Shown one piece after another: positions 14,595 through 31,026 of a stretch of DNA of 64,000 nucleotides. Made by a program: the position numbers and the translations under genes. The stretch comes from Candidatus Bathyarchaeota archaeon. Its GTDB lineage: Archaea > Thermoproteota > Bathyarchaeia > Bathyarchaeales > Bathycorpusculaceae. The notes under the pieces are model-generated. The model saw only the letters and a list, made by a program, of their open reading frames with translations. It had not been told where the DNA came from and did not search any database. The stretch spans positions 640,001 to 704,000 of the forward strand of contig OY970176.1 in the NCBI GenBank assembly GCA_963707955.1, read 5' to 3'. Every line of letters begins with the position of its first letter. Position 1 is the stretch's first letter.

Positions 14595-14664
14595 CTAGGA
14601 AAGCTTCGCTCGCCAGAAACATCGCCAGGCACCAAGAAAAAATACCAAGTCAGTCAAAATCAGG

Positions 14665-14753
14665 GCGGGGTTGCCCTAACCTGGTAGGGGGCAGGCCTGC
14701 TAAGTCTGTGGCTGGAAACGGCCGCGTGGGTTCAAATCCCACACCCCGCGCCA
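14665..14753 (+). tRNA. tRNA-Ser(GCT), integration target
   Basis: GCGGGGT/ACCCCGC acceptor stem, anticodon arm CAGGC-CTGCTAA-GTCTG, long variable arm, GTGGG-TTCAAAT-CCCAC T arm, G73, encoded CCA. Confidence 0.95.
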
Positions 14754-14754
14754 A
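14734..14754 (+). repeat. attL core (tRNA 3' end)
   Basis: AAATCCCACACCCCGCGCCAA matches 29285-29305 at 20/21 positions. Confidence 0.9.
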
Positions 14755-14804
14755 CAAAAACTTCAAATCGGGAAGACCTCCCAACATGTTTTAAGGAGAC
14801 AACT

Positions 14805-16136
14805 TTGGGAATCTACCGCTACGAAAGGCGCCTATGGCTCGCCGTTGAAGGACCTGAAGGAATCAAGAAGTCAAAGACGATCATCCCCCAGAACAAGAAG
14901 CTGCTGCTTAATTATGCTGAGTATCTCAAGGCCACCGGAAAGAGCCTTCCACGTCGAGACAAGCTAGTCAGAACCCTGAAGATCTTCGCAACTCTTCTAG
15001 GCCCAATACCCTTCAAACTTGCAACTAAAGAGAACATGATTCAGATCCTGGCGAAAGCTGAAGATCACTGGATGTCCGAGTTAAGCAAGAAGGGCAGACC
15101 TGGACCAGCTTCAGACTACACGCGCAGAGACTTCCAGGAAATAATCAAACAGTTCTACGCATGGCTCTTTGATGTCGAGGATCCACGCCACGAGGGATAT
15201 CCCAAGGTTGTTAGCTGGATACGCTCCAAGGCGCCGAAACAGAAGCTCAAGGCCTCCGATCTACTCACTCCCGCAGAAGTGAAGAAACTAATCAGCGTCA
15301 CACTGGACATGCGGCTCAAGGCTCTGATAGCCGTGTGCTATGAATGCGGTCTAAGGGTTGGCGAGGCTCTTCAGATGCACATAGGAGACGTCGAGTTACA
15401 AGAACAGTGCGGAACACTGACGGTGAGCGGAAAAACAGGACCGCGCGTAGCCTACTCAATCGAATCGTTACCATTGCTCATGCAGTGGTTAGATCAGCAC
15501 CCAACCCGAAACAACCGTGAAGCCTGGCTCTGGACAGATGACACGGAACCCTTAACCTACGATAGGGCCCGCTTCAAACTTCTAGAATGCAAACGAAAGG
15601 CAAACATACACAAAAGAATATTCTTCCATCTTTTCAGACACAGCTCGGCCACTTCTAACGCACAATTAGGCGAGTCCATGCTGCGTAGCATCTACGGCTG
15701 GAGCAAAAACAGCGATGAACCGAGCACCTACGTCCATCTCTCAGGAGAGACAGTTAAGAAAGCCTTACTCGAGAAAGCCGGCCTGAAGCAGAAAGCCCAA
15801 GAGGAGCCGGCAGTCATCATGTGCCCTCGCTGTGGAAATCCTAACCAACCGAACGCAAGTCTATGCATAAAATGCAAGGGTGTCTTGAAAATCCAGGATG
15901 CGGTTTCAATGAGCGGGCTCCTGGAGCAGGTTCAAAGACTGAATGAGAAAATCGAGAGAATGACTCCGGAATTCGCTCGGCATGAAGAACTATTCAGGAT
16001 CATGAAGAAGAAAGGTCTCGTCACAGAGATTAAGGACAAACCGGCTTCAGGGTCGGGCCAACTCTACACACCTTTTCGAATTCGCAGAGATACTAAAGAT
16101 GGAAAGAAGCAAGGTTTCTGCATCACTTTAGGTTAG
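14805..16136 (+). CDS. Tyrosine recombinase/integrase with C-terminal zinc ribbon
   Basis: GLRVGE (R), GKTG (K), HLFRH (HxxR), YGW, YVHL (Y); CPRC...CIKC ribbon and coiled coil. Confidence 0.93.
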   Translation: MGIYRYERRLWLAVEGPEGIKKSKTIIPQNKKLLLNYAEYLKATGKSLPRRDKLVRTLKIFATLLGPIPFKLATKENMIQILAKAEDHWMSELSKKGRPGPASDYTRRDFQEIIKQFYAWLFDVEDPRHEGYPKVVSWIRSKAPKQKLKASDLLTPAEVKKLISVTLDMRLKALIAVCYECGLRVGEALQMHIGDVELQEQCGTLTVSGKTGPRVAYSIESLPLLMQWLDQHPTRNNREAWLWTDDTEPLTYDRARFKLLECKRKANIHKRIFFHLFRHSSATSNAQLGESMLRSIYGWSKNSDEPSTYVHLSGETVKKALLEKAGLKQKAQEEPAVIMCPRCGNPNQPNASLCIKCKGVLKIQDAVSMSGLLEQVQRLNEKIERMTPEFARHEELFRIMKKKGLVTEIKDKPASGSGQLYTPFRIRRDTKDGKKQGFCITLG

Positions 16137-16334
16137 GGCTAAACCCTTGAAACTAGGCCTCTTCTCTTCTATAGGCCTCGTTCTTTGATTCTGCATTCTG
16201 CCACCTTGGCAGATTCGCTGAAAAGAAGACTTCACAGAACCCTTAGGGATAAAACTTATACTATCAAAGACGCCTATTAGCGAGGCAGAATATCTCCAGT
16301 ATTTTCACTGGCCATTGAAAAAGGAGGTTATGGA

Positions 16335-18896
16335 ATGGTCGATTTCAACAAGTTGCTCGGTAAGAAGAAACTGAGCAAAGTCTTGGATCCAATATTGATT
16401 TTCAAGGATCTCGATAAGGAAATTGGCAAGGAGGATCTCAGACTCCCCCAGGCTGCAGTTCTGAAAGACTGGCATGAGAAATGGAGAAGTAAGCGTGATA
16501 TCATTGTGAAACTGCATACAGGTCAAGGGAAGACTCTCATAGGATTGCTCATTCTCCAGTCATCCTTGAATGAAGGGTTTGGACCAGCTCTTTATGTCTG
16601 CCCAAATAAGTATCTCGTGAATCAAACCATCGAACAAGCTCGAGAATTTGGAATTCATACAGTTCAGTTCGCTCCAGACGTAACAAGGCCTCCCCAAACC
16701 TTCCTCAATTCGAACTCTATCTTGGTAACAAACTGCAAGAAACTTTTCAATGGAAAGTCAGTATTTGGAATTGCTGGGTCAGGCAGAGAGCCGATAAGCC
16801 TCGGCGCGATTGTGATGGATGACGCTCACAAGTGTCTTGACATAATTCGCGAGGCATTTTCAGTAACGGTTGATAGAACAGATGCTGATGGAAAACCCAA
16901 TCCGATGTACTCAGAGATTTGGGATTTGTTTAGGGAGTCTCTGGGAAGGCAGGCACCTGGAACCTGTTCAGATATTGAATCTGGCGAACCGAATAGCTTG
17001 ATGGCTGTTCCATTCTGGGCATGGCATAACAAACAAAAAGAAGTGCTGCAGACGCTTCGAACGCATAAAGAAGGAAAAGAACTACTATTCGTCTGGGATC
17101 TACTCAAAAACAGAATCGAACAATCGCTTTGTCTTTTCTCCGGAACGAGGCTTGAAATCGCTCCCCGAATTCTTCCAATTGATCTTGTACCAAGTTTTTC
17201 TCAGGCAAAGAGGCGCATCTTTCTTTCTGCAACGTTGACTGAAGATTCATTCCTAGTGAGAGATCTATTGATAGACCCAGAGAGCGTTTCTGAGCCATTG
17301 TCATCTGGTGACGTCAGCTATTGCGGAGAGCGGTTGATAATCATACCCTCTTTGGTTGATCTAAACCTCAGACGCGAACAGCTGATAAGATGGGTTTCCG
17401 CAATCGCAAGAAAACATGGGAGTTTTGGTGTAGCAGCAATAACCCCCTCCTTTGAGCACGCAAAGCATTGGGAAAAATACGGTGCCAAGGTGACGAATGT
17501 AGAGAATCTTGAGGAGGAAATAAGCAATCTTCAGGGAAGGATCAAGAAAAGGGAAGCTAAGGAAGTAATGATAATCGTAAACGAGTACGACGGCGTGGAC
17601 CTGCCAGACAACACTTGCAGGATTCTGACACTGGATTCTCTTCCGACCTATAGCTCTCTTATCGAAAGATTTGCTCAAGAAATGAGACCGACATCAGGGA
17701 TAATCAGAAGACATCTTGCGCAAAGAGTCGAACAAGGGATGGGTCGAGCGATTCGTGGGAGTAGCGATTGGTGTATAGTAGTCGTTGTTGGAAACAACCT
17801 GACTAATTTCCTGTCCGAGCATTCAAAGAGACAATTCCTCTCGAAGGAAGCCCAGATGCAGATCAAGATAGGAGAGGAACTCGCAAGTGAAATGAAACAA
17901 GAGGGAGCGGAAGTGGGAGTTGTCGAGAGACTCATTAATCAGGTTTTGAACAGGGAACCTGGGTGGAAGGAGTACTACAAGAAAGGAATGTCAGAAATTG
18001 GTGTCGAAACCATAAGCTCTGAAAATCTCAAACGTGCCATTTTGGAAAGAGATGCAGAGACATTCTACATTCAAGGGAATTTCAAAAAGGCAAAAGATAC
18101 AATTCAAGAACTAATCCAAATGTCGGAACAGACCGACAAAGGCTGGTATTTCCAGCTTATGGCTACCTACTTGTTCCCAATAGACAGCACAACCTCCATG
18201 GATATTCAGGTCAAAGCTCACAGCGAAAACAACCGACTTTTCCGCCCTGAAGCTGGGATAACCTACTCTAAGGTGACGGCAACTGGAAGCAACCGCGCTT
18301 CACTTATCCTAAGCTGGATGCGCACGTATGACTCCTACAATGCGCTCTTGATTAATCTTGGGAGTATTCTGGATAGAGTAGCGTTTACGGCACCTTCTGA
18401 GTCTTTCGAAGAAGGGATGAATGAATTAGGCAAAGCTCTTGGATTCTTGACTGATCGACCAGAGAAGGCTTCTGGAAGCGGACCCGACGATCTATGGAAC
18501 ATAGACGGTAAGAGATACTGGATAATCGAATGCAAAAACATGATTTCGTCGCAACGCAAAGAAATCACTAAGAAAGAAGCTGGGCAACTTGGCAATGCTA
18601 TCGGATGGTTCAAAACTAACTACAAGGATTGTGATGGAACCTATGTCTTTGTTCATCCAGCAGATGTGTACGCAAAAGATGCATATCCGCCGGAGCAGAT
18701 ATGGTGTCTAAACCCTCAAGGTCTTGACAAATTGAAGAAGAACGTTATGGCCTTCTATGTTTCCATGCAAAGTACGCCTCTTGCAGATGTCTCCGAAAAT
18801 TTGATTCGCAAAAAGCTGACCGAGTTTAGTCTGGAAACGAGTGTTGTGGCGACATCCTACCTAAAACGTGCAGAAAAGGGTCAGGCTTCAAAATAG
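16335..18896 (+). CDS. SF2 (DinG/XPD-like) helicase fused to C-terminal PD-(D/E)xK nuclease; Hna-like anti-viral candidate
   Basis: Q motif LRLPQ, HTGQGKT, MDDAH, FLSAT, YDGVDLPD, QGMGRAIRG; C-terminal GPDDLW...IIECK; SD AGGAGGT upstream. Confidence 0.75.
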   Translation: MVDFNKLLGKKKLSKVLDPILIFKDLDKEIGKEDLRLPQAAVLKDWHEKWRSKRDIIVKLHTGQGKTLIGLLILQSSLNEGFGPALYVCPNKYLVNQTIEQAREFGIHTVQFAPDVTRPPQTFLNSNSILVTNCKKLFNGKSVFGIAGSGREPISLGAIVMDDAHKCLDIIREAFSVTVDRTDADGKPNPMYSEIWDLFRESLGRQAPGTCSDIESGEPNSLMAVPFWAWHNKQKEVLQTLRTHKEGKELLFVWDLLKNRIEQSLCLFSGTRLEIAPRILPIDLVPSFSQAKRRIFLSATLTEDSFLVRDLLIDPESVSEPLSSGDVSYCGERLIIIPSLVDLNLRREQLIRWVSAIARKHGSFGVAAITPSFEHAKHWEKYGAKVTNVENLEEEISNLQGRIKKREAKEVMIIVNEYDGVDLPDNTCRILTLDSLPTYSSLIERFAQEMRPTSGIIRRHLAQRVEQGMGRAIRGSSDWCIVVVVGNNLTNFLSEHSKRQFLSKEAQMQIKIGEELASEMKQEGAEVGVVERLINQVLNREPGWKEYYKKGMSEIGVETISSENLKRAILERDAETFYIQGNFKKAKDTIQELIQMSEQTDKGWYFQLMATYLFPIDSTTSMDIQVKAHSENNRLFRPEAGITYSKVTATGSNRASLILSWMRTYDSYNALLINLGSILDRVAFTAPSESFEEGMNELGKALGFLTDRPEKASGSGPDDLWNIDGKRYWIIECKNMISSQRKEITKKEAGQLGNAIGWFKTNYKDCDGTYVFVHPADVYAKDAYPPEQIWCLNPQGLDKLKKNVMAFYVSMQSTPLADVSENLIRKKLTEFSLETSVVATSYLKRAEKGQASK

Positions 18897-19140
18897 CCGG
18901 TCTCGTGTGCGAGCCCTCTGGATAGACATGTCTAGATACGTCAATAGTAGTATCGCTATTCCTTAAACCCGAAGCGAATTGGTATTTATGGGAGATATCC
19001 GTTTGAGTGTAAATACGTCACCTCAACCAGGGTCCATTTGCAGCCAAGCTGGCTGCAATAGGCATGGTTTCCTCAGGCTAGCGGCACTATTCATTTTATC
19101 TGAGAAAGACTCTTACATAAGATCGTATATACGGTTACTC

Positions 19141-19224
19141 GGAGGGGGTTCCCCAGTGGTCACGGGGGCTCGCTTGTCAACCGAGTGCCGTAGGGCTGCG
19201 CGGGTTCGACTCCCGCCTCCTATT
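19141..19224 (+). ncRNA. Aberrant class-II tRNA-like gene (GTC anticodon position, long variable arm)
   Basis: D arm CCCC-AGTGGTCAC-GGGG, anticodon arm CTCG(C)-TTGTCAA-(C)CGAG, variable arm GCC-GTAG-GGC, T arm GCGGG-TTCGACT-CCCGC; imperfect acceptor stem; TATA-like TTACATAA ~25 nt upstream and T-rich tail. Confidence 0.7.
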
Positions 19225-19549
19225 TTGTATATTTTGGTCAGGCTATGAAGAGAGTACGCGCGCTAGATGGTTATAAGCAAAATTCGTGAACCAAATTAGG
19301 AAGGTTAGCCTCTTCATGCAAACAATGCTTTGCCTCTTTTTTTCAGTCACAGAGGTCACTCTCATTTTTCGAGGACATTTCAACTCGTGACTGCGGGCTG
19401 ACAAATGAGTTGACACGATGTATATATAATACTCGAAGACTCCATCCCCTTGAACAGCCTCTATGTCAAAGCAGTGACAATTCTGGAGAACATCAGGCCA
19501 GCTCTCGAGAGTTCATGGGTTTCTAGCGTCTTTAGGCCTCTAGAGCCTC

Positions 19550-19735
19550 GAGGACTTGCGAGCGCCCCCGAGACATCTCGAGATGATTCTCACATATTTC
19601 GAAAGCGTCGAGTTCTGCATACCCTCTGATACAGAGGTTTCCCCGAGCCTTTTTTGCTTCGAGAATTCTGCAGGCCTTCTGCAGGAGGTCTCGTCAAGTC
19701 CTCTTGATGTCGGGAGTGATACTCAAGATGTCTCG
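19550..19735. ncRNA. Putative structured non-coding element
   Basis: ~25-bp imperfect stem 19569-19595/19707-19735, 13-bp stem 19550-19562/19690-19703, internal hairpins 19623-19637 and 19666-19687; no convincing ORF. Confidence 0.45.
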
Positions 19736-19760
19736 ACAGTCTGGAACAAGAATGCCTTGC

Positions 19761-19784
19761 TTCGTTTTCTTTGCATAAAACGAA
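19761..19784. repeat. Island palindrome copy 1
   Basis: TTCGTTTTCT-TTGC-ATAAAACGAA. Confidence 0.8.
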
Positions 19785-19825
19785 AGTAGACTTTAGCTAA
19801 TCTGTGTGCTCTGAGAACCTGCTTT

Positions 19826-19904
19826 CCATGGTGACACCACGGTATCAGTGACCCCCATTCTTCTAGGGGTCCAAACGTGGGCATTGACCCGAGCGACCCC
19901 ACCA
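19826..19904. ncRNA. Unknown structured motif, copy A
   Basis: Hairpins CCATGGT-GAC-ACCACGG and GACCCC-N10-GGGGTC, then CAAACGTGGGC...AGCGACCCCACCA; paralogue at 24912-25005. Confidence 0.5.
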
Positions 19905-20240
19905 ATAGCTTATTATACAGAATAAAGCTAGATCAGCCGACTATTTTTAAGAAGCAACGTCGGACACGGGTTTGTTCCTGAGGGTCGGGTGGCGTTGCCT
20001 TCACAGGTTCATGCAATGCGTTTTTTCGCATCGTGATGCAGCGGATGAAGTTGGCACTATTATCGTCTTAAGTTGTAGACCTGGTTGGTTCTGTCGGAGT
20101 TTGAACGCAGCTTTGTTACCGCATTCTGAATCGTTCTCGCATTATGCCAGAGTACCTCGATCTGATATTGTGCTGCCGATTTCTCAACTGCGGCCATTTT
20201 CGAACGAGGCGTATGAACTCTCGATGTACGCTTATGCCAT

Positions 20241-21176
20241 CTAGGGATTCAGTGTGGGAGTCAGAGACAACTTCAGGTTTCTAAGGAACTCATTTACCTC
20301 CTTGATTAGGCCAGTGCTTGCTAATGAAGGGAGAGACACTATTCCAGTAAGAAAGGAGACAATCTGTATCAAGTCGGCCGCCGTACTGATGGTCTTGTTC
20401 AAATAACGTTTTGCTTCTTTCGCTTTGGTTGAACCCTGTTCTTCCAGTCTTGTTGCGACAGCTGCCACTATTTGTCTGATTTCGTCCTGCCTATTCAATA
20501 TTGTCTTAATCTGTCCTGGAGTCTTGGAAATTTCCGCCAGGATAGCACTCCCCATTTCCTTGATTTCTCTGATGCCTTCTTCTGCTCTCCCTGCGCTTCC
20601 AGCGAGTACCTTCTGTTTTTCAGAGACGTCTTCGATTACGTCTATTATTCTGTCTAGTCTTTCTAATATCAGTAAATCGTTGGCACGAGTCATATTCAAT
20701 AGATGCAATTCACGCTTGGTTTCATTGAAAGATGTCTGTTGCCCAACCAGTACATAGCATTTGCAGCCTGAAATGTCAAATGCATACTTGTCAGTAGATT
20801 TTTCCGAGACAATTCTATCTTCACAATCCATCAGGCTTCGCGACTTATCATCGCTGATGATCTCTCTTTTCAGAAACGTCAGATAGGTGTCCATCTGAAG
20901 TCTTTCTTCTGTGCTGAGATCCTCGAGTTCTCCAAAGTAGATGTTAGCTTCTGTGGCAGATAGCACGCTATGAAGGCCACTTGCGAGATGAACTACAGGC
21001 TTGTTGCGTTTGATTACTGGATCTGACCATATTAGGAAGCAGAAGTCTTGGAACATGCTGAAAACTATCGGCTTGTAACCTGATCTTTGTTTGATCTGGA
21101 TAGGTGCGATAGTTAGTGATTCGTCCACTGCCGATCGAAAGATGAAGTATTGGGTCCCCTTTAAACCGACAACCAC
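20241..21176 (-). CDS. Hypothetical protein with C-terminal coiled coil and hydrophobic helix
   Basis: 311-aa ORF; heptads from LERLDRIIDVIEDV; tail ADLIQIVSFLTGIVSL. Confidence 0.7.
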   Translation of the reverse strand: MVVGLKGTQYFIFRSAVDESLTIAPIQIKQRSGYKPIVFSMFQDFCFLIWSDPVIKRNKPVVHLASGLHSVLSATEANIYFGELEDLSTEERLQMDTYLTFLKREIISDDKSRSLMDCEDRIVSEKSTDKYAFDISGCKCYVLVGQQTSFNETKRELHLLNMTRANDLLILERLDRIIDVIEDVSEKQKVLAGSAGRAEEGIREIKEMGSAILAEISKTPGQIKTILNRQDEIRQIVAAVATRLEEQGSTKAKEAKRYLNKTISTAADLIQIVSFLTGIVSLPSLASTGLIKEVNEFLRNLKLSLTPTLNP

Positions 21177-21205
21177 TTTCTCTGGACTATTCCCAGTTAT
21201 CCAAA

Positions 21206-21886
21206 CTATCTCACGCGATATATTGGTTGCCCCCTCTCGTCTTTTCCGAGTTCTTCAAGATCCAGTGGCGTTTTGTGCAGACCTTCCTGCGCGATTATTC
21301 TGTTCGTCTTCTGCATTGATCTTAACAAATCACAAGCTCTTTGGAGAAGTTTCTTTCCCGCATCTCGAGTTTGTTTGAATGGTGAAAAGAATAGAGACGT
21401 CCCAGTCCTGAGTAGAGATGCTAGTTCACTGAAGACTCTGTGTTCAACAGTTCCCTCAAAATATCTGTTTGTAGCGGTTGTGAACGCATCAGCCAATGCT
21501 TGGAGTCTGGAGTAGGACGGTTGTGTGTCACTTTCTATGGTTCCTACCAGTCCCTCAAAATACTCGTCTGGGTCAACGTTGCCATCAAGAACATGGTTGG
21601 TGGCAGCCACCATCACTTCCTGAATTTGATCGCCAATAGGCTGAAGATCCGCATGCAATATCATGAGGTACATTTTAGCTTTTGGAGTTAAGTTGAATCT
21701 CTCACTGCGTCCCTCGAAGGAAATGTTCGCAAGACCGTAACTGACACACGACTTGAGTATGGCGGACGCAACATTTCGGCTAATACCAGTGCTATTCACG
21801 ACTTCGGTTATGTTCCGAGGCTCTTTCTCGTCGAGCGCACCAAGACATTCAACGAACTCGTCAAGCCATGGTTTTGTTCGACTCAT
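21206..21886 (-). CDS. Winged-HTH protein
   Basis: Start re-placed at ATG 21886 behind SD GGAGGTGA; NITEVVNSTGISRNVASAILKSCVSYGL...FNLTPKA is a wHTH pattern. Confidence 0.7.
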   Translation of the reverse strand: MSRTKPWLDEFVECLGALDEKEPRNITEVVNSTGISRNVASAILKSCVSYGLANISFEGRSERFNLTPKAKMYLMILHADLQPIGDQIQEVMVAATNHVLDGNVDPDEYFEGLVGTIESDTQPSYSRLQALADAFTTATNRYFEGTVEHRVFSELASLLRTGTSLFFSPFKQTRDAGKKLLQRACDLLRSMQKTNRIIAQEGLHKTPLDLEELGKDERGQPIYRVR

Positions 21887-21944
21887 CTGCCATTTCACCT
21901 CCTGATTTGTATTACTTGAACGCAAGCATTCGCAAAGGGCAAAT

Positions 21945-21969
21945 GCAATGCATGCATTGTATGCATTGC
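21945..21969. promoter_or_regulatory. Inverted repeat, candidate operator of the wHTH gene
   Basis: GCAATGCAT-N7-ATGCATTGC just downstream (minus strand) of the AT-rich TATA-like tract at ~21975-21985. Confidence 0.45.
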
Positions 21970-22074
21970 GCCCATAAATATAAATGTTTCCCTCACCCAA
22001 AAGCACAGTATGTTACAATGAGCTACTTCTCACCAATTGCTTCAAGTTGAAGTCTCGCCAGAACCCCAACCCGA

Positions 22075-23604
22075 TTAGTTTTGATAGTAATTGAACGCTA
22101 ATGAGTACAATGCTCCAGGACTGGAAGCGCTTTGGTCTGTTCTTATCAGTTTGCATGCGCTGTCTAATATTTTCCTCGGTTCAGCTTTGACAGTAACCTT
22201 ATTTTGAGAGAGTGTATCCATGGTTTCCGTGTCTGTTGGAAACGATGGGTTTCTTTCTTTTTTGAAGATTCCCCCGAGAATTCGGTCATTATTCTCTGCT
22301 ATTCGAGTCCCAATGTGAAGAGCAGCATTTGAGATGCAGTCCATGCACTGTATGTGTGATTCGTAGATGTCCTCTTCTACTCGTTTATGTTCAAGAAGAT
22401 ACTTCAGTAACGATGTGCTTTCATTTTCGATTTCGGAAAAACAGCTAGCTGCCTCTTCGGCATATTCTCTAGGAAGACTCGACAACTTCTGAATGGAGTT
22501 GTCTGAGTTAGCGTTTACGTAGGCGAGGACAATTGAGATTCTCAAGAGAACACCTGTGAAAAATCTCGAATTCCATCTCAGCCTCTGCGAATCGGGCCGC
22601 ACTCTGGCAACTGCTGGTTCAAATACATAGTCTTTCATAGCTCGAATATATGAGGTGCCTGCAATTCGCAAGGCGATAATATCCATAAGCGATTCGTAGA
22701 GGTGTCTCGTAAAAGGTTTGTTTGTTGCATATTCAACAAAACTCTGTGGGGTTGGGGCGTTCAGAGTATCCTGCCATTTCTTGAAAGGACAGAAACTCAT
22801 GTTTTTGTTGAGTTTGGTATTGCAGCCTCCCATTATTTCCAACAACTTCTGTCGCAGACCAAAGATACATTCGAGTGTATCACTTAGTACAGTCACAGAC
22901 TCTGGAGCGAGCGAGCGTGGTCTTCCAAGCTCATCAAAGCTTGTCTGACATGCTGCGTGCGAGATCTCATGTGCGAGTATTAAAAGTCCCTGAAGATTAT
23001 ATTTAACATCCATAGCAAGATTCAGATGAAAAGTCTTGTGAAGAAGTGTGTACCGGCCCCCCGGAAGTGATTGTTGCAGTTGAAGTTCAGACCAGGAAAC
23101 AAACTTGTCCCATCTCACTCCTGACATGTTCAGGTATGAGAGATAGTTGTTAACTAGTTTATCAGCAGCTACCAAGTAGAGTTCGTTTCCGCAACTTCTT
23201 TCAGGGCTGAATGGAATGCCAGCTATTATGTACGGAAGCTCCACACTATCTGTTCTCTGGAAAAAGCCCGATTTTATGAACGACACGATTCTTGCTATTT
23301 TCTCTATTGCATATTTTGCATCTGCGATGGCGATCATTTTATCGCTGTCGCTTTGTTCAGATTCATTCTCCTCGCTTCCTGCGTATCTTGTAACCTGACT
23401 TGAGAAAAATCTAATCTCGTCATCCAACCCTCCCTGACCAAAAATATCAGGGAGGATATCGCTATTTTCAAATGCCTTGCTGGCGAATTTCCATCGGTCT
23501 TTAAGTGTTAGATATTCACTCAGAAGACCTCTGTACTTGCGGAGAACGTCTCGGAAGACTTCATCAGAGCATGCATATCTGTCAGTCTTTATCAAGGATC
23601 TCAT
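22075..23604 (-). CDS. HEXXH (gluzincin-like) metallopeptidase-domain protein
   Basis: LAHEISHAAC plus downstream YESLMDIIALRIAGTSY (E...D..A....G..Y). Confidence 0.6.
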   Translation of the reverse strand: MRSLIKTDRYACSDEVFRDVLRKYRGLLSEYLTLKDRWKFASKAFENSDILPDIFGQGGLDDEIRFFSSQVTRYAGSEENESEQSDSDKMIAIADAKYAIEKIARIVSFIKSGFFQRTDSVELPYIIAGIPFSPERSCGNELYLVAADKLVNNYLSYLNMSGVRWDKFVSWSELQLQQSLPGGRYTLLHKTFHLNLAMDVKYNLQGLLILAHEISHAACQTSFDELGRPRSLAPESVTVLSDTLECIFGLRQKLLEIMGGCNTKLNKNMSFCPFKKWQDTLNAPTPQSFVEYATNKPFTRHLYESLMDIIALRIAGTSYIRAMKDYVFEPAVARVRPDSQRLRWNSRFFTGVLLRISIVLAYVNANSDNSIQKLSSLPREYAEEAASCFSEIENESTSLLKYLLEHKRVEEDIYESHIQCMDCISNAALHIGTRIAENNDRILGGIFKKERNPSFPTDTETMDTLSQNKVTVKAEPRKILDSACKLIRTDQSASSPGALYSLAFNYYQN

Positions 23605-24451
23605 CCAAAACTATCTGTTTTTCGAACTTCAATACAGTCCCAGTCCAATTGGGTGGTCCCGAAGATCTGAAGTTCTTTCGCATTTGCTTTATTACTTTTA
23701 GCAGGGCTTGTGGCGAGGATCTTTTGGTGTCTCTTGCGAGATCAAAGTATCCAAGCCGATATCTTGTGCCGCGATATCGAATCATTTTTTTAAGTAGCGC
23801 ATTGTCACCAAGCTTTACGTTAATGGTTCCAGAAACAACATCCTTTTTAGGTGCCTCTGTATGCTGATTACATATTATCATGAAAGTGCAAAAATCTCTT
23901 GCAAACTTGGTTCTCGCCCTGACAGCGATAATAGACCTAGATAGAGCGTCATAACTTTCACCCTCGAGTTTCAACAGGTAGGATACAAAACTCGGATTCC
24001 ACATGAAATGATAGCCGATGTTTGGATGCTTCTTCTCTATATGTTTCAGTGCTTCCAGAATGTCTGAGAGGTCGTTATTAGCAATCCTAAAAACCGAATA
24101 CGCTCTATATGGCGGGAGAGATTTCGGCCTTTCTCCTGACCATTTATGGCTTCGCATCGGAAAACAAAGCAGTGATAGAAAGGAGCCTTCGAAAGAACGA
24201 GCCCTGAAGAATTCTTTCCGAATCGTATTTAGTAACTCAAAACCGGCTTCAGGGGACGCAGGTTGGATGTCAAAAACGTAGTCAAATCTTCCAAAGCATA
24301 CGCCAAAAAAGCTGGGCACACTAGAATTCTCTTCTAGGATTCTTAAAATCCTTGACTCCACCATGCGCAAATTCCTAGTGAGAACGAAGGTGACTATTTC
24401 TGGGACTGGCGAGATTAGAAGTTCTTGCGTACCTTCTTGCGCGTTGCTCAA
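23582..24451 (-). CDS. Protein with repeated Lrp/AsnC ligand-binding-like (ferredoxin-fold) units
   Basis: CFGRFDYVFDI and YRLGYFDLA resemble the GxxD motif of AsnC/RAM domains; overlaps the HEXXH gene. Confidence 0.5.
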   Translation of the reverse strand: MSNAQEGTQELLISPVPEIVTFVLTRNLRMVESRILRILEENSSVPSFFGVCFGRFDYVFDIQPASPEAGFELLNTIRKEFFRARSFEGSFLSLLCFPMRSHKWSGERPKSLPPYRAYSVFRIANNDLSDILEALKHIEKKHPNIGYHFMWNPSFVSYLLKLEGESYDALSRSIIAVRARTKFARDFCTFMIICNQHTEAPKKDVVSGTINVKLGDNALLKKMIRYRGTRYRLGYFDLARDTKRSSPQALLKVIKQMRKNFRSSGPPNWTGTVLKFEKQIVLDEILDKD

Positions 24452-24911
24452 GAGACATGCACCATGCCAAAAACTCGAGATAGCTCAGTTCCTCTTACTT
24501 GCGGTTTCTTACAGATCGACGTGGTCTATCAAAATCCCCTCATTCACCTTCATATGAAGGAGAGAAAAACGACTCGCCTATCCGTGGATCCCTTGATTTT
24601 GCCACGAGTCTTGTACGCCTATCCAGCTCACCCTTGGGAGGGGGTAGAGTGACCACATACTCACGGATGCGTTCAAGACGAATTCTTAGTTTGCGATCCA
24701 CGCATAGTCCCACGGCTCCCTTATCCGGTGATACTGTATTATGTCTTGTGAAACCAGAATAATGATTCCTGACCATCTCTAGCACCAAAGAGCTGTTTTC
24801 TTACTAGAAAACTAGCAAGTTAACTTAAAGCTTTCTACGACGCGGTCACCTCGGTCATCTACTCCACAGCCACTGTTCCAGTTCGGGCACCAACACAGCG
24901 CCGATTAATAG

Positions 24912-25005
24912 GATTTTCCGGAACGCGTAACGGAGTAATCTTCAAGGAGCCCTATAGCATAATGAGGGTTCAAACGCGGGCTCTGGACGCCAAGCGACCC
25001 CACCA
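24912..25005. ncRNA. Unknown structured motif, copy B
   Basis: Hairpins GATTTTCCG-N10-CGGAGTAATC and GAGCCCT-N11-AGGGTTC, then AAACGCGGGC...AGCGACCCCACCA. Confidence 0.5.
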
Positions 25006-25035
25006 TAACTACAAAGGTTTTGTCACAGCTACTTC

Positions 25036-25059
25036 TGCGTTTTATGTTTATAAAACGAA
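25036..25059. repeat. Island palindrome copy 2
   Basis: TGCGTTTTAT-GTTT-ATAAAACGAA. Confidence 0.8.
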
Positions 25060-25233
25060 GCTCAACAGGTTGTCCTAGAAAGTCCAAAATGAGAAAAAGT
25101 ACTGAAGAGAATACTTCGAAGTTGTCCTTCAGAATGGTTGATGGGAAGACGCGAAATCTTCAGACCTTTCGCTCTGAAGCTTTCCTGCTTCCTCATGTGC
25201 AAAGTAGCGTTTCCGTTTTCTGACAAGATTAAT

Positions 25234-26292
25234 CTATGACAAGGTTCGTTGTTCCAGAAAACCCAAGACGCGTCCAATGGTTTCACTGTAGGAAAGAGTT
25301 GTCCTCGCACCTGCCGCTCTGGAATTAGGACCTCCGCCTCCGAGGAATTTCGCAAGAGGTCTAACATCGTATGGAGCAAAAAGACATCGAAAAACGACTT
25401 TCCCGTTTTTATAAGCAACATAGAGAGCATGGTCTTTTTCTCGTTCGCATACGTCACTAATGAAATTGATACTTGAAAAATAGAGATTGCAAAACTTGAC
25501 TTTCAACCCGCTTCTGAAAAACACATCATACTTATCCTTGAGGAACTCCTCTATTCTTGAAAGGTCTTCTTGATATTTTTGTAAAGCGAACGATAACTTG
25601 GTATCTTCGTGCAATAGTTTGTTTATGTTGTTTGCCAGACATGCATCAAGAAAAGAGTCATAGGTATATTCAGGGCCTGCTGTAGCAATCGAAGCTCTAA
25701 CAACCTTGGCTAAGGACATTAGCTTTGATGTTATTACGGATTCCAAATCGAATCGGTCAATTAATCCCATTTTCTTTATGAGATCGAACATCTCAAAGCT
25801 ATCTTCTATGCAGTAATCTTGGGCAGCGCCTATTCCTCCCACCCAGCACCTTTGACTAAAAAAGTCGCGGTCGATATTCATGAGGATTTTCCATACTAGA
25901 GCTGAGGAGTTGAGGAAGTCAACATTGTCTAAGTGGGGATTGCAATCAATGAAATTCCTATCATTAATATGGAGAATATCATGGTGATCAAGATTCATTA
26001 TTCTTGTTTCTTTTAAGATATCTGAAAGATAGTTTGTATACTGCTGCAAGGGGCTGTCTACTATAATCAAGTACTTAGGTTGGCGGTCCTTGATGGACTT
26101 TAGAATTTCATAGTATTGACAAAATCTAGATGGATATGAAATCTCTGCACGAACACCATATTTCGATACAAAATAGGCATTCAATAAAACGCTCGCACTG
26201 AACCCGTCGTGGTCAGCATGTGACATTATCATGCAATCACGAGGCGAGATTTCCTGCAAAATAGCAACAACATTTTTGAGATTTTCAGTCAT
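25234..26292 (-). CDS. DHH-family phosphoesterase with DHHA1-like C-terminus
   Basis: SHADHDG, IVDS, LDHH, GGGGP..AAGA motifs. Confidence 0.85.
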   Translation of the reverse strand: MTENLKNVVAILQEISPRDCMIMSHADHDGFSASVLLNAYFVSKYGVRAEISYPSRFCQYYEILKSIKDRQPKYLIIVDSPLQQYTNYLSDILKETRIMNLDHHDILHINDRNFIDCNPHLDNVDFLNSSALVWKILMNIDRDFFSQRCWVGGIGAAQDYCIEDSFEMFDLIKKMGLIDRFDLESVITSKLMSLAKVVRASIATAGPEYTYDSFLDACLANNINKLLHEDTKLSFALQKYQEDLSRIEEFLKDKYDVFFRSGLKVKFCNLYFSSINFISDVCEREKDHALYVAYKNGKVVFRCLFAPYDVRPLAKFLGGGGPNSRAAGARTTLSYSETIGRVLGFLEQRTLS

Positions 26293-26307
26293 AAGACAAG
26301 CCTCGCA

Positions 26308-27993
26308 TTAGAAGGCATCGTCCACACACGCGAAGTTCGATGCACTTACTTGTCGATGCAAACCTAGTCTGGCAACATAAGAATAATGAGCCATTCGTTT
26401 TTCAACTTTAGTCATTAGAACCTCTTTTTTGAATTCGTTGGGATTTCTAATGAGATCAATGATTTCTGGAAGTGTTAAAAAGTATATGTCTTTCTCATGG
26501 ATCAGTTTACTTGAGGTAAATTGCTTGCCTGCTAGAGTGAAGAAAGGTCGAATAATAGACAGGTTACGGATCCAATGGTGATGATGATTATCTCTTTCCT
26601 GAGAAAGTTTCCTAGCTGCATTCAACGTGAACGTAAAGCTTTCATTATCAGAAACACCAAGTTTACCCTCAACAAAATCAACTGTTTGTCCAAACTTAAG
26701 CTTGTTCTCCTTAAGAGATACATGTTCTTTAGTTTCGTGATCAGACTTTCTAATTGCAGAAAGCATACCAATTGCATTCGATATGGGATCGAAATAAGGA
26801 TCTCTTGTCCGTATCCACCACCAATTGTTAGTGTGGTTTTGTAACCGCTCTAGCCAATCGCGACCATCTGGTATTTTGGCAATGCTACCCATTATTGTTC
26901 TTTCATCCTGCGCTGAAAAGATCTGATCCTTGATTTCCTCTGAAGCACTTTCAAGCAGGCGTGACGTTTCGATTGCAAACCTATTAGAAATTACTATCTC
27001 CTTCACGTCAACTGGCCTTAATAGAATGCTCATGCAATCGGCAACAGTTGCATTATCCCTACAAGCCTTTGCTACCAGTTCACGTAGACGCGGACCGACG
27101 ATGTCATCGCCCATTGATTGTATTAGATATGTGTGGGAAAAGAACTCGTTATGTACTGCCCACCAAGAGATAAAATGCTCAACAAGCTCAGGAGAGACTG
27201 CCTGTTCGCTGGTTAATACACTCTCAAATCTTGCGGTCGCCTTGTCGAAGCTTTCGTATACTTCTTGAAGCCGGTGCAGAAACCAACCCCAGTAAAGGCT
27301 ATCATTTTGGATAAATTTCTGAGAAAGTCGCTTAAGTAACCGGCTTGTCGTTTGAAACTCGATACAAACATTTTGGTGATACCTGACATACAGGGGCGAC
27401 AAATCTTCGAAGCCAAGAGCATGGGGAACCCTTTCAATTCCGCCTCCTATCAGAGAGCGCTGAACAAAAGATCCGTATATCTCTGGCCTTGGCGTAATCC
27501 ACTGGTACTCTTTTTCCTTGTCCGGGGCTTTCCAAGCATAATCTATCCGTTCACACAAAGGCAGAGTGAGGAACACTTTCTGTGCAAAAACTGGGACGCT
27601 ATTTCCAAATATCGTAAACCTGGTAAGAGCGTCATTTTTGTTTTCCGTGCTCAAGAGTCCTTCCAAAATATGTACCTGGCCGTTTGTTCCATCTACTTTG
27701 ACCAACATACCATCTTTCAGCAATATCGTAGCATTTTGCGTTCCTGTGACACAGGGAATAGCTCTCTCCCTCGAAATAACAGCCGCATGGCAAGTAAGAC
27801 CACCACTGTCAGTAATGATTGCTGAGCATTTTCCCATAGCAAGGACCATATCGGGATTTGTCATTCGAGCGACAATGATATCTCCCCTTTCAACCTTTTT
27901 CAAGTCAGCATTGCTAAAAACTATTCTTACTCTTCCCTCCGCACTCCCACCACTTGCCGGAATGCCTGTTATGATTTGCGTTGGTTTGCTCAT
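26308..27993 (-). CDS. PEP-utilising phospho-His swivel domain (N-terminal) fused to a helical domain resembling the rifampin phosphotransferase substrate domain
   Basis: GIPASGG.AEGRV, MTNPD, DSGGLTCHAAVISRE, VDGTNG; C-terminal WWWIRTRDPY, ERDNHHH, DIYFLTLPEI. Confidence 0.75.
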   Translation of the reverse strand: MSKPTQIITGIPASGGSAEGRVRIVFSNADLKKVERGDIIVARMTNPDMVLAMGKCSAIITDSGGLTCHAAVISRERAIPCVTGTQNATILLKDGMLVKVDGTNGQVHILEGLLSTENKNDALTRFTIFGNSVPVFAQKVFLTLPLCERIDYAWKAPDKEKEYQWITPRPEIYGSFVQRSLIGGGIERVPHALGFEDLSPLYVRYHQNVCIEFQTTSRLLKRLSQKFIQNDSLYWGWFLHRLQEVYESFDKATARFESVLTSEQAVSPELVEHFISWWAVHNEFFSHTYLIQSMGDDIVGPRLRELVAKACRDNATVADCMSILLRPVDVKEIVISNRFAIETSRLLESASEEIKDQIFSAQDERTIMGSIAKIPDGRDWLERLQNHTNNWWWIRTRDPYFDPISNAIGMLSAIRKSDHETKEHVSLKENKLKFGQTVDFVEGKLGVSDNESFTFTLNAARKLSQERDNHHHHWIRNLSIIRPFFTLAGKQFTSSKLIHEKDIYFLTLPEIIDLIRNPNEFKKEVLMTKVEKRMAHYSYVARLGLHRQVSASNFACVDDAF

Positions 27994-28117
27994 GTGGATG
28001 ATTCCAATTGATCTATTAGTTTATTTGCAAGAAGCTAATATTTGTATTTTGCCTGGTCACTTACGTGAGGCAGATTCTAGGATTAACATATAAGGCACAG
28101 ATAATCCTTCATTATTT

Positions 28118-28861
28118 ATGGCATTTCCAGTGGAGTTTGAAAGCTATGAAGTTTTCAGGATTATTCTACCTGGATATTTAGCATTGGGTGCTATCTTGCT
28201 CTCTTTGTACAGCTTCTCAATTACTCAACCGTTTTTAATTGACTTCTCAATAGCCTTAGGTCCGACTGTATTATTAGCGTCTATGATTGGATTGGGCTTG
28301 TTCCTGGGTCTAGTACTGTATGATTATGATCACCCACGACGCACCGGTTTCTATAAGACTCGTATAAGGACATCTCTGCCTTCCTTGCATTTGAAAAATA
28401 TCCTTTGTGATTCGTGCAATCACAAATGTAGGAATGCAATTGGGGATTCAGATACTGCAAGCTCGACGTATTTCTATTTATTCTACGGCTATTTTGATTC
28501 TAGTTCGCAAAAGACTGCGAATTTCTTTGGATCCATTTATAGAATATTCGCAGACATGCGGGCTATATTTGGATTAATATGGGTAACTCAGCTGTCATTT
28601 GGTCTTTTTGATTTGGTTCCGCTGATTATGAATGGTGCAATTGTGAGTCCTTCTCTCACTGCGGTTAATCTGACACTCTTTGTGGTTTTCCTACCATTGT
28701 GGCTACGTTTACATCCTGAATTCTATTCTAACCGATTGAGCAAAGGTGACCAATATATGCTCAATGCGATTAATTTCCAGAAGAGGTATCTCGATTTGAA
28801 GATTAACGATTTTAGAGGCTTGATATGTCTTCCGCCGACAAACAAGATGGCGGAGTATTAG
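28118..28861 (+). CDS. Multi-pass membrane protein with CxxCxxxC loop
   Basis: About four TM segments; FRIILPGY N-terminus; CDSCNHKC; AT-rich codon usage. Confidence 0.7.
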   Translation: MAFPVEFESYEVFRIILPGYLALGAILLSLYSFSITQPFLIDFSIALGPTVLLASMIGLGLFLGLVLYDYDHPRRTGFYKTRIRTSLPSLHLKNILCDSCNHKCRNAIGDSDTASSTYFYLFYGYFDSSSQKTANFFGSIYRIFADMRAIFGLIWVTQLSFGLFDLVPLIMNGAIVSPSLTAVNLTLFVVFLPLWLRLHPEFYSNRLSKGDQYMLNAINFQKRYLDLKINDFRGLICLPPTNKMAEY

Positions 28862-29036
28862 AGATCTTAACACCACGATATCTCCAGCGTGCGCTAAATG
28901 AGGATTTGTCTTGGTAAGCTATTGATATTGAAGTCTCAAATAGTTCGTAATCCAGCCTTAATCATGTTGCCATCTACACTGGTTTTTACTGCGTGCGCAT
29001 GCGAGAGAACGCTGGTAACGCGCTTTTGATTTGTCT

Positions 29037-29087
29037 TTCGTTTTATTGGAAAAAAACGAAAGCTTCAGTTTCTTCGCATAAAACGAA
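29037..29087. repeat. Island palindrome copies 3 and 4 (tandem)
   Basis: TTCGTTTTAT-TGGA-AAAAAACGAA (29037-29060) and TTCAGTTTCT-TCGC-ATAAAACGAA (29064-29087). Confidence 0.75.
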
Positions 29088-29167
29088 AAGATACCAAGGA
29101 AGTACAGAAAAACAGAACTTGAGAAGAAAAACACGCTTCGCCCCTCTCTCGTTTCTTTTGATTTCTG

Positions 29168-29214
29168 GACAAACATATATGTTTGTCATGTTCGTTTTAT
29201 GTAAATAAAACGAA
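29168..29214. repeat. Perfect 20-bp palindrome plus island palindrome copy 5
   Basis: GACAAACATATATGTTTGTC (29168-29187) and TTCGTTTTAT-GTAA-ATAAAACGAA (29191-29214). Confidence 0.85.
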
Positions 29215-29284
29215 AACGTTATAACTACTTATCGGCGACAAAAATCGTTTTCACAGAAGAAAATCCAGATTTGGAGATTGGACA

Positions 29285-29305
29285 AAATCTCACACCCCGC
29301 GCCAA
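29285..29305 (+). repeat. attR core
   Basis: AAATCTCACACCCCGCGCCAA duplicates the tRNA-Ser 3' end. Confidence 0.9.
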
Positions 29306-29751
29306 TTCCGCGTGTTATTTGAAATCTTTCTTTAGCGCGCTGCCTTGTCGCTTTATTATGCGTGCACACTTGAACAGCCACGTAGCCCCGCATCCAACAT
29401 GAACGGCTTCATCGTTTTCAACGATGCTCGTCGACTGTATATGCAAAATGTATATGCTTTTTGTATATGCTCTTACGTGCGCGCTATTGGCGAATTCAGG
29501 GACAAGCCAGCGCGCGGGCTAAACAGCTAGAAGAGGAAATGCCAGAAGAAGAGGAATGAAAGTGAAAGATTGGGAAAAGCGAACTATTCGCAAATATGCT
29601 AATATGGGAGTCCTTGACCACCGCGTTGACTGTGATTATTTTGTAACGGGAAAGTCTGATATACATTACGGTCATTTCATATTCAGAATTAGCGCGCGCG
29701 ACAACAACCGCGTAGATGAATCAAACAGTGATTTAGGAAAGTGAGAGCATC

Positions 29752-31026
29752 ATGGAAGGAAAATCGATTGATGTTGACAAGACCGTGATGGAACTGGTTA
29801 TGACCGATGATCCAGCGAAGAAGAAGCAACTAGCCAAAACAATCTTTGACATCGCGTACGAAGAAGGGAGTTACCCATCGAGCATCCATGAATTCTACAT
29901 GGCCCGCGGCAGAGGCGAATTCGGCGGTTTCACAGTCCCCGCGATAAACCTGAGAAGCCTGACTTATGATCTGGCTCGCAGAATATTCAGAGTAGCCAAA
30001 AGAAACAACTCTGGCGCATTCATCTTTGAGATAGCCAGGTCCGAGGTGGGCTACACAAATCAGTCGCCGACAGAATATGCAGCCATGGTCATGGCGGCTG
30101 CGGTAAAGGAAGGCTATTCCGGTCCGATCTTCATCCAAGGAGACCATTTTCAGGTCAACGCCGCCAAATACAGAGAGAAGCCAGATAAAGAGATAGAAAG
30201 CTTGCAAGCTTTGATCACCGACGCAATCAGCTCAGGCTTCTACAACATCGACATCGACTCGTCGACGCTAGTGGACCTGTCCAAGCCTGACCCGAAAGAA
30301 CAACAGCTTCTCAATTTTGAGATCTGCGCAAAATTGACACAGTTCATTCGCCACATTGAGCCAAAGGGGATTACAGTTTCCGTGGGTGGCGAGATTGGGG
30401 AAATTGGACATCAGAATTCAACGCCCGAAGACCTGAGTACATTCATGGCAGGCCTAAAAGACATGTTACCCAGGGGACTGGCTGGAATAAGCAAAATCTC
30501 AGTCCAGACTGGAACAACTCACGGAGGAGTAGTACTCCCCGACGGCTCAATCGCGCAAATAGACCTCGACTTCAACGCTCTAAGGACCCTTTCGGAGATC
30601 GCCCGCAAAGAGTACGGGTTGGCAGGGGCCGTGCAGCACGGCGCATCAACCCTTCCGCTTCAGGCATTCCACAATTTCGTTGAGTGCGAGACAGCTGAAG
30701 TCCATCTGGCGACAGAGTTCCAGAACATGATCTATGAATCAAAACACTTTCCGGCTGATCTAAAGAAGAAAATCTACGAATGGCTGAAAACCAACGCCGC
30801 AAACGAAGCCAAACAAGGCGAAACAGAGGAGCAATTCCTCTATAAAACCCGAAAAAAAGCCCTTGGACCATTCAAGAAAGAGTTCAACGGTCTGCCACAA
30901 GAGACGCGAGATGTAATCGCAGCAGAAATAGAGAACAAATTCGACCTGCTCTTCAGACAACTTAACGCCGTAAACAAAACGGACTTAGTCAACAAGTACG
31001 CGCATGCGCGCTCTTCCCTTGCATAG
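29752..31026 (+). CDS. Class II fructose/tagatose-bisphosphate aldolase-family protein (long form)
   Basis: VPAIN, IQGDH, DIDSS, GGEIGEIG, GTTHGG, QHGAS. Confidence 0.85.
   Translation: MEGKSIDVDKTVMELVMTDDPAKKKQLAKTIFDIAYEEGSYPSSIHEFYMARGRGEFGGFTVPAINLRSLTYDLARRIFRVAKRNNSGAFIFEIARSEVGYTNQSPTEYAAMVMAAAVKEGYSGPIFIQGDHFQVNAAKYREKPDKEIESLQALITDAISSGFYNIDIDSSTLVDLSKPDPKEQQLLNFEICAKLTQFIRHIEPKGITVSVGGEIGEIGHQNSTPEDLSTFMAGLKDMLPRGLAGISKISVQTGTTHGGVVLPDGSIAQIDLDFNALRTLSEIARKEYGLAGAVQHGASTLPLQAFHNFVECETAEVHLATEFQNMIYESKHFPADLKKKIYEWLKTNAANEAKQGETEEQFLYKTRKKALGPFKKEFNGLPQETRDVIAAEIENKFDLLFRQLNAVNKTDLVNKYAHARSSLA

Follow-up and report, generated by a model that had tools for sequence, protein, structure and literature searches.

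The 64,000-nucleotide (nt) window analysed here, a stretch of contig OY970176.1 from a Candidatus Bathyarchaeota genome, contains two copies, A and B, of a short motif that appears to be an attachment (att)-type boundary of small integrated cassettes, derived from the gene for tRNA-Pro(GGG). The probability of this interpretation can be put at roughly 0.65. An earlier note on the same DNA had described A and B as paralogous structured motifs that flank one cargo module, and had suggested either a novel small RNA or a folded, single-stranded recombination site similar to attC. The recombination site was right in kind, but the properties of the motif indicate a double-stranded site of the att type; it does not resemble attC because the only inverted repeat is 6-7 base pairs (bp) long and the consensus lacks a core of the GTTRRRY type that is part of the usual definition of such sites.

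Copy A has a conserved core of 42 nt (19864-19905 on the + strand; covariance-model match G000:C1:659864-659905, 60.5 bits) that reads GGGGTCCAAACGTGGGCATTGACCCGAGCGACCCCACCA on this strand and whose final 13 nt equal the 3' end of tRNA-Pro(GGG). Copy B, also on the + strand, contains a 2-nt insertion and spans 44 nt (24963-25006; G000:C1:664963-665006, 52.4 bits); it terminates in AGCGACCCCACCA, as A does, and differs from A at several positions of the left 29 nt. Alignment confirms that both copies are located where they had been reported and have in common the blocks (C)AAACG(T/C)GGGC and AGCGACCCCACCA; over the last 16 nt, 15 of 16 positions are identical (repeat family D4). When the copies from related genomes are added, the alignment delineates a conserved unit of about 42 nt with sharp edges on both sides and the family consensus GGGTTCAAACGTGGGC(T/A)(C/T)T(A/G)ACCTA(T/A)(A/G)(C/T)GACCCCACCA, given for the + strand of the window. 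The GGGTTCAAACGTGGGC block contains an imperfect inverted repeat, GGTTCAAA / TTTGACC, with a 7-bp spacer, an arrangement that would suit a recombinase binding site.

Several features that had been attributed to the motif could not be confirmed. The two upstream hairpins lie in copy-specific sequence outside the conserved family (19826-19863 for A and 24912-24962 for B) and are not conserved among the 39 distinct copies with flanks, which are unrelated there. The stem that involves the start of the motif (GACCCC/GGGGTC in A and GAGCCCT/AGGGTTC in B) is present in both copies in the window but was not seen in the other copies, as judged by eye and not by a count. The tRNA-like ACCA end is replaced by ACCC, ACCG, GCCA, ACTA or ATCA in relatives. 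The TATA-like boxes near the two copies are parts of unrelated flanks: the one at A is within the AT-rich palindromic flank family that is also found after tRNA-Pro, and the one at B is inside another palindrome (25034-25060). The AT-rich palindrome directly after copy A, AGCTTATTATACAGAATAAAGCT (19907-19929), opens this flank family, which occurs 3' of tRNA-Pro(GGG) as well as after several motif copies elsewhere (family R1 and several unclustered flanks); the flank after B is unrelated to the one after A. A separate AT-rich palindrome, TTCGTTTTAT....ATAAAACGAA, is present in five copies (19759-19785, 25034-25060, 29035-29061, 29062-29088 and 29189-29215), one beside each motif copy, on opposite sides, and three near the right end of the genomic island that encloses both (see below).

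An Rfam scan of the related loci identified an intron-bearing tRNA-Pro(GGG) with the 3' end ...CCCAGCGACCCCACCA. In the genome to which the window belongs (G000, hereinafter the source genome), this gene is located at 550541-550662 on the - strand, with an intron in the D-loop, and its 3' end (G000 550538-550563) is identical to the terminal 13 nt of the motif, which therefore correspond to the 3' strand of the acceptor stem, the discriminator and CCA. At copy A, the similarity continues beyond the motif, with about 45 nt past ACCA aligning with the 3' flank of tRNA-Pro itself (the ...aataaagctag... stretch). Without gaps, the last 33 nt of the motif show 23 identities to tRNA-Pro by manual count. 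The motif exceeds the tRNA end by 12 nt (four codons), located between GGGTTCAAA and CGACCCC; judging from the alignment, this excess could be roughly a second, imperfect copy of the T-stem/T-loop segment, and the portion of the motif that precedes the 13 nt looks like a degenerate, overlong T-arm. The earlier statement that no known family was recognisable is fair with regard to RNA libraries, though a tRNA gene supplies the terminal 13 nt in the form of its own 3' end. In the source genome, ARAGORN predicts 43 tRNA genes, many of which have introns; Met, Phe and Tyr are not represented among them. The Rfam tRNA model yields 40 matches; tRNA-Pro(GGG) and tRNA-Gln(UUG) are among several tRNAs with D-loop introns that escape the finders.

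The motif belongs to a family that extends well beyond the window. The resemblance between A and B is not due to chance: a strict pattern occurs twice, as A and B, in the single-contig, 2.35-Mb source genome, with no occurrence in a control read backwards, and a looser pattern retrieves copies from four other genomes, the control giving 0 matches in 41 genomes; a caveat on chance is that the 13-mer with at most two mismatches is found 2 times against 1.12 expected. A profile search adds two copies in the source genome, C (716789-716830) and D (548957-548998). The covariance-model search across archaeal genomes, which the earlier note had proposed as a check, does find homologues: a model built from nine copies gives 43 matches in 23 of 121 sampled genomes of the family, representing 18 of 70 genera, with 1-6 copies per genome. 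The copies are often clustered in one orientation, 0.1-10 kilobases (kb) apart, and pairs or triplets in the same orientation are present in G045, G072, G077, G114, G131 and G007. Within the genus of the source genome, the motif is present in four genomes (G000, G001, G003 and G007) and was not found in five others that are 83-97% complete (G002, G004, G005, G008 and G009).

Examination of the hit tables and individual loci reveals seven genomes in which one to three motif copies lie downstream of a complete tRNA-Pro(GGG) gene, on the strand of the tRNA. When G072 is included, there are 12 anchored copies in eight genomes, all of them 3' of the tRNA and co-directional with it, at distances from 85 nt to 9.8 kb. 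Measured from the 3' end of tRNA-Pro, there is a single copy at 1.5 kb in the source genome, at 0.7 kb in G057, at 1.0 kb in G067 and at 3.8 kb in G101; two copies at 0.9 and 2.1 kb in G131 and at 85 nt and 9.8 kb in G007; and three copies at 4.1, 7.5 and 8.9 kb in G045. In the eighth genome (G072:C6), a 3' fragment of tRNA-Pro stands in the place of the tRNA, and the copy is 1.2 kb away from it. The terminal copies of the arrays are followed by a flank, ...ccagaggcccc..., that is native after tRNA-Pro in genomes free of cassettes (L053-L055, L058 and L072; family R2). The intervals encompass 1-4 accessory genes, and the bounded units are mostly 0.7-5 kb in size. Their cargo includes FMN (flavin mononucleotide) reductase, a nucleotidyltransferase-HEPN pair, flavodoxin, O-methyltransferases and methyltransferases dependent on SAM (S-adenosylmethionine), a GNAT acetyltransferase, an amidinotransferase-like protein, a PrsW-like protease and a bPH-domain protein.

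One of these modules is found in two different contexts. Between G131 and G077, homology of the FMN-reductase module starts at the base that follows ...CCAC(T/C)A, runs up to the last base of the next motif and stops right past it; the left edge of the module is tRNA-Pro in G131 and a motif copy in G077. The flanks behave similarly: the tRNA-Pro flank of G057 is found again behind a motif copy in G072, and that of the source genome reappears behind A and behind the family R1 copies. Across the 39 distinct copies, the left flanks include 7 recurring families and the right flanks 4, and these are combined in many ways; left family L0, for example, is paired with two right families (R0 and R2) and also with five right flanks that do not cluster. 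The interchangeability of motif and tRNA at module edges and the reassortment of flanks can be considered signatures of recombination at the site, real but thin, as read from the sequences.

These arrangements suggest a simple scheme. Each small module would have the motif at one of its ends and, in most cases, an AT-rich palindrome at the opposite end. A tyrosine integrase acting in trans would recombine such a module, through the matching 13 nt, with the end of tRNA-Pro(GGG) or with an existing motif, and each event would leave the tRNA intact and add one module. Repeated events would then yield an array with the order tRNA-Pro, module, motif, module, motif, native flank. In the window, where A and B are direct repeats that bracket 5.1 kb, a 5.1-kb module of four genes, extending from the palindrome at 19907-19929 through B, would have been joined to a motif copy already resident in the island, by recombination inside the 13 nt that the two have in common. 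Such an event would account for the identity of A and B over the terminal 13 nt alongside the differences in their left 29 nt. What we infer in this scheme is the enzyme, the crossover point and the present activity of the site.

Candidate integrase genes are found next to tRNA-Pro(GGG) in some genomes. The source genome encodes an open reading frame (ORF) of 353 amino acids (aa) (G000:C1:550490-551551) that runs antisense through the entire tRNA-Pro(GGG) gene, including the D-loop intron, and shows a weak match to Pfam Phage_integrase (E = 8.4e-6, 26.1 bits against a cut-off of 27.1 bits). Relatives of this ORF overlap tRNA-Pro in the same manner in G045, G046 and G057, of which G046 has no motif match; in three genomes, the integrase gene is located at the anchor end of the array and points away from it. 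PMC8371274 and PMC7253208 describe archaeal integrases with the att site inside their own gene, which the overlap at tRNA-Pro resembles; together with PMC6563490, they also describe a preference of archaeal integrases for tRNA genes, at the 3' end. A partial copy of the 5' part of tRNA-Pro, joined to a truncated integrase start, is present 6 kb away (556382-556621); because the duplicated fragment is the 5' part, the att site of the tRNA-Pro integrase in the source genome seems to be this part of the tRNA and not the motif.

Among the known systems, the attL/attR sites of archaeal elements that target tRNA genes (SSV-type, pTN3-like, pT26-2-like 'suicidal' and classical integrases) share several features with the motif: direct repeats flank the insertion, each repeat includes a tRNA 3' end with encoded CCA, an intact tRNA is found at one end (as in the arrays of seven genomes, though not at A and B) and, in some genomes, an integrase ORF overlaps the tRNA, as described in PMC8371274 and PMC7253208. 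The motif length of about 40 bp also falls within the range of 29-69 bp given for crenarchaeal att sites in PMC6563490. A textbook case of such a pair is the tRNA-Ser island of the window itself. Unlike these sites, the motif equals the tRNA in only 13 of its approximately 42 nt, and the site recurs up to three times per array as well as away from the tRNA. In PMC6563490, tyrosine-recombinase elements are reported to form arrays, and the cryptic integrated elements of Thaumarchaeota, with a median size of 17 kb, are defined by the possession of an integrase, whereas none was found in the motif cassettes that were scanned. Tandem accretion arrays have the same order of tRNA, element, att, element and att, with inner units that lack an integrase and would need one in trans; they differ in that the motif is a fixed variant sequence across 18 genera and not a plain copy of the target. 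Integrase-less remnants at a single att site, known as cis-mobilisable elements, are a concept from the bacterial literature.

A number of observations weigh against the cassette-boundary interpretation. The exact match to the tRNA is confined to 13 nt, the remaining approximately 29 nt not being tRNA sequence, and the most invariant block, GGGTTCAAACGTGGGC, is not the end shared with the tRNA, and no role has been assigned to it. The motif cannot yet be linked to an enzyme: the tRNA-Pro integrase of the source genome seems to rely on the 5' portion of that gene, the anchor tRNA in G131 is adjoined by purine biosynthesis genes and not by an integrase, and no integrase was found among the 10 cassette ORFs scanned or the four cargo genes of the window. 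Copies A and B are 110 kb away from tRNA-Pro, with none nearby, and the tRNA-like gene nearest to them (19141-19224) is unrelated to the motif. For the A-B module, no empty site was found, and its 509-aa gene was not found in 200 other genomes of the family. The support for module boundaries consists of one aligned pair and two shared flanks, and at copy C, for which an empty site was sought among genus relatives, rearrangement is visible close to the motif, but the homology with G007 breaks about 47 nt from the motif instead of at its edge. The flanks of L007 and L012, from genomes of different genera, are identical over more than 100 nt, a near-identity that suggests recent spread instead of function. 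Finally, one of the recurrent 'cassettes' is a conserved gene of Bathyarchaeia, which fits mobile cargo poorly. This gene encodes a protein of about 180 aa that starts with LTIIVDDAGIGDLLFGVV... and belongs to no Pfam family (L009:8998-9549; 716998-717549 in the source genome). It has 1697 homologues in Bathyarchaeia, the best 120 of these 1697 being 74-96% identical; it adjoins the motif in at least eight genomes and is located between two copies in G045 and G114. In G008, the order of this gene and its neighbour is circularly permuted relative to the source genome.

The recent spread indicated by L007 and L012 is one of the reasons to consider the possibility that the motif is an inert relic, that is, a decayed 3' end of tRNA-Pro or an N-terminal fragment of the overlapping integrase gene that is copied passively and remains conserved only through recent transfer. 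Several copies are degenerate (copy C of the source genome, L031, L032, L033 and, in G007, the copy closest to the tRNA, at 85 nt). Fragments of the integrase gene do persist: in L052, L068, L071 and L078, the tRNA-Pro flank retains the first 25-30 or so integrase codons, with the rest of the gene absent. A further point is that the excess over the tRNA end amounts to exactly 12 nt, or four codons. Nevertheless, such a relic is an unlikely explanation. The 42 nt retain sharp edges in 40 distinct copies while the flanks reassort, whereas passive copying would carry the flanks along, and the most conserved block is not the part identical to the tRNA. In the commoner variant, the integrase frame is interrupted by a stop codon, and long frames across the motif are absent. 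An integrase N-terminus running through the motif was considered specifically and rejected because neither orientation offers a long frame: in the - strand orientation, frames from the motif do not go beyond 85 codons, and none is long across the motif on the + strand. Along the same lines, the sequence MVGSLG, which both copies read on the - strand and which had been mentioned as a potential coding signal, is not one, given that the 2-nt indel between A and B puts the shared blocks in different frames; in addition, the triplet ahead of GTGGGG is often not a start codon.

The small RNA that the earlier note had suggested, a CCA-ended decoy, antitoxin or switch, is not supported, as no Rfam match and no covariation were detected, CCA is not conserved and the distribution is patchy. 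One version would be a small non-coding or tRNA-like RNA transcribed from the - strand, starting with GGUGGGG and forming two short helices and possibly a pseudoknot. The two helices that can be drawn on this strand, GUGGG/CCCAC and GGUCAA/UUGAACC, were assessed for covariation over 40 distinct copies and 11 pairs, with 500 shuffles as the control. Both helices are drawable, with pairing in 94.2% of the cells, yet the shuffled mean is 94.0%, and 115 of 500 shuffles are as high. A double-sided pair change is found in one cell (copy L004), which 223 of 500 shuffles equal, and the shuffles average a covariation score of 0.150, compared with 0.149 for the real alignment (189 of 500 shuffles as high). 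No measure of covariation rises above the shuffle control (115, 223, 444 and 189 of 500 shuffles equal or better for the four measures); pairing is barely tested by these data because the 3' strands of both helices hardly vary (at most 6 of 40 copies per column). The changes that do occur keep pairing only on the - strand (U-A to U-G; C-G/A-U to U-G/G-U), and an AT-rich, TATA-like stretch is located about 22-28 nt upstream in A and several relatives. This apparent promoter flank is, however, the 3' flank of the real tRNA-Pro together with the start of the integrase gene. Neither a scan of the entire window with Rfam 15 at gathering scores nor one of 18900-25300 at E<=10 gives a match at A or B, and neither ARAGORN, with and without introns, nor the Rfam tRNA model at E<=10 detects a tRNA at any motif copy. 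Furthermore, the copy number varies from 0 to 6 with patchy presence in the genus, and, judging from the sequence, only 2 nt would be available for the loop across the first helix. Taken together with the drawable helices, these features make an RNA a very improbable alternative.

The similarity to tRNA 3' fragments, pseudo-tRNAs and halves of split tRNAs is also limited. The motif shares with these the 3' strand of the acceptor stem, the discriminator, CCA and the T-loop-like GGGTTCAAA, but differs in that it does not fold into a T-arm plus acceptor, is not matched by tRNA finders and has no partner half that could be found. Several specific candidates of this kind were rejected. A 5' half of a split tRNA, read from the - strand and with a trailer able to pair with the leader of its 3' counterpart (GGAGATATCTCC), fails in that the acceptor strands do not match, GGAGATATCTCC also occurs downstream of the conserved 180-aa gene where there is no motif, and the '3' half' at 213 kb is a fragment of tRNA-Leu(UAG). 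An intron-containing tRNA composed of the motif and downstream T-arm pieces can be discarded as well, these pieces being 3' fragments of tRNA-Gln and tRNA-Leu. A solitary repeat of the CRISPR type was likewise considered and rejected; a k-mer scan of the source genome returned two coding repeat regions and no array. A recognition box of a replication origin was considered too; A and B are direct repeats separated by 5 kb. The GGAGATATCTCC hairpin itself, followed by A(C/T)TTG, is present at G000:C1:213009 and at four other exact sites in the source genome as well as in L052, L058 and L063. It abuts eight motif copies (left family L0) and, in addition, true 3' fragments of tRNA-Pro and tRNA-Leu, and may be an arm of another att site or a terminator hairpin.

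The cassette arrays bring to mind integrons, and a more literal version of this analogy, in which the motif would fold as a single strand like attC and be recombined by a dedicated integrase with tRNA-Pro as attI, had to be weighed. The arrays consist of short cassettes of 1-4 accessory genes with a recurring site and no integrase found in the scanned cassette genes; acetyltransferase, methyltransferases and a toxin-antitoxin-like pair are cargo that integron cassettes typically carry; and in three genomes, as noted above, the integrase gene is at the anchor end and points away from the array. Integrons have been reported in Archaea (10.1101/2022.02.06.479319). Attachment sites of integrons differ from the motif in their build, which is a long imperfect palindrome as opposed to a conserved, tRNA-derived sequence. 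A typical attC is an imperfect palindrome of 55-140 nt that ends in inverted core sites (R''/R', GTTRRRY type). It is the sequence of the motif, not its structure, that is conserved; its inverted repeat of 6-7 bp is far from such a palindrome, and its consensus contains no GTTRRRY-like core in the usual sense. The orientation of cassette genes is mixed, the genes in the window being co-directional with the - strand reading of the motif and those in G131 opposite to it. The anchor integrases match the integrase antisense to tRNA-Pro in the source genome, in the manner of SSV/pTN3-type elements, in comparisons made among themselves and with Pfam Phage_integrase. On balance, a genuine integron-type site appears very improbable, slightly more so than an RNA. 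The least probable of the alternatives is a protein-binding regulatory site or terminator-like punctuation, such as an operator of the conserved 180-aa gene, which could account for the location of the motif upstream of the start of this gene at six loci (about 50-60 nt at L007, L012, L030, L032 and copy C of the source genome, and 160 nt at L036) and for the AT-rich palindrome that often follows the motif, but not for the presence of the same motif at the boundaries of unrelated cargo and after tRNA-Pro, the variable orientation of the gene relative to the motif or the genus relatives that have the 180-aa gene without the motif.

If the motif is an att-type cassette boundary, a broader and considerably more tentative proposal can be made, one that we regard as doubtful: that Bathyarchaeia possess a gene-capture platform anchored at tRNA-Pro(GGG), similar to an integron in its logic but assembled from different parts. 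Cassettes without an integrase, each ending in a 42-bp pseudo-tRNA site, would be inserted serially by an integrase acting in trans, possibly the one whose gene overlaps tRNA-Pro, and secondary copies of the site, such as A and B, would let the platform ride inside other mobile islands. Bathyarchaeia are abundant, uncultured archaea of sediments in which gene acquisition is little understood. A true recombination site would provide a sequence tag for recently acquired accessory and defence genes, a case of the evolution of an att site away from the tRNA sequence and, possibly, an archaeal analogue of cassette capture. Should the motif be only a relic, a false lead to a 'novel RNA' would be removed, and two nested layers of mobile DNA would have been mapped in the window.

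The outer of these layers is an island of 14.55 kb at tRNA-Ser(GCT) (14665-29305), inside which both A and B are located. Its target is the tRNA-Ser(GCT) gene (14665-14753), the 3' end of which is included in the left att repeat, a 21-nt direct repeat on the + strand (14734-14754; family D2); the right att repeat (29285-29305, + strand) is identical to the tRNA-Ser 3' end in 20 of 21 positions. The tyrosine integrase of the island is encoded next to the tRNA (14805-16136, + strand; Pfam Phage_integrase, E = 1.2e-18), and two relatives from the same genus have the empty site, with tRNA-Ser joined straight to the sequence corresponding to position 29286 or so (G010:C100 and G003:C126). In the contigs assembled from four DNA runs of one study, over 13500-30500, there is no joint at A or B, a result that is uninformative on excision there; the same runs contain loose contig ends at the 3' end of tRNA-Ser (14753/14754) and around the repeat at 29.4 kb. 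The island additionally encodes an 853-aa helicase that matches the candidate defence family PDC-S28 (16335-18896; E = 9.5e-288), a DHH-family protein and a protein with a phosphoenolpyruvate-utilising domain.

The cargo between A and B consists of four co-directional genes on the - strand (20241-24451) that encode proteins of 311, 266, 509 and 289 aa. None of the four shows a match above the threshold in Pfam, PADLOC, PHROGs or NCBIfam, and the Atlas leads are all below 0.9; a recombinase, sought among them with the same resources, was not detected. The 509-aa protein (22075-23604, - strand) is a member of a very rare family and has 11 matches among 5.8 billion proteins, all of them unnamed. 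Visual inspection of this protein reveals a HEISH motif of the HExxH-like kind.

The island also contains an odd tRNA-like gene (19141-19224, + strand) that scores 29.5 bits, just at the cut-off of the Rfam tRNA model. Its anticodon is GUC, its D-stem has 5-6 bp, its variable arm is long and its acceptor stem is poorly paired; apart from this gene, tRNA-Asp is called just once in the source genome, in an ARAGORN prediction with a 782-nt intron. Just outside the right att repeat of the island, there is a repeat of about 180 nt (29336-29516), many copies of which, 73-90% identical, are found in the source genome and the genus, including more than 20 places each in G001 and G007; it looks like a miniature mobile element. 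Farther along the window, the archaeal signal recognition particle RNA is encoded at 45422-45736 on the + strand (152 bits).

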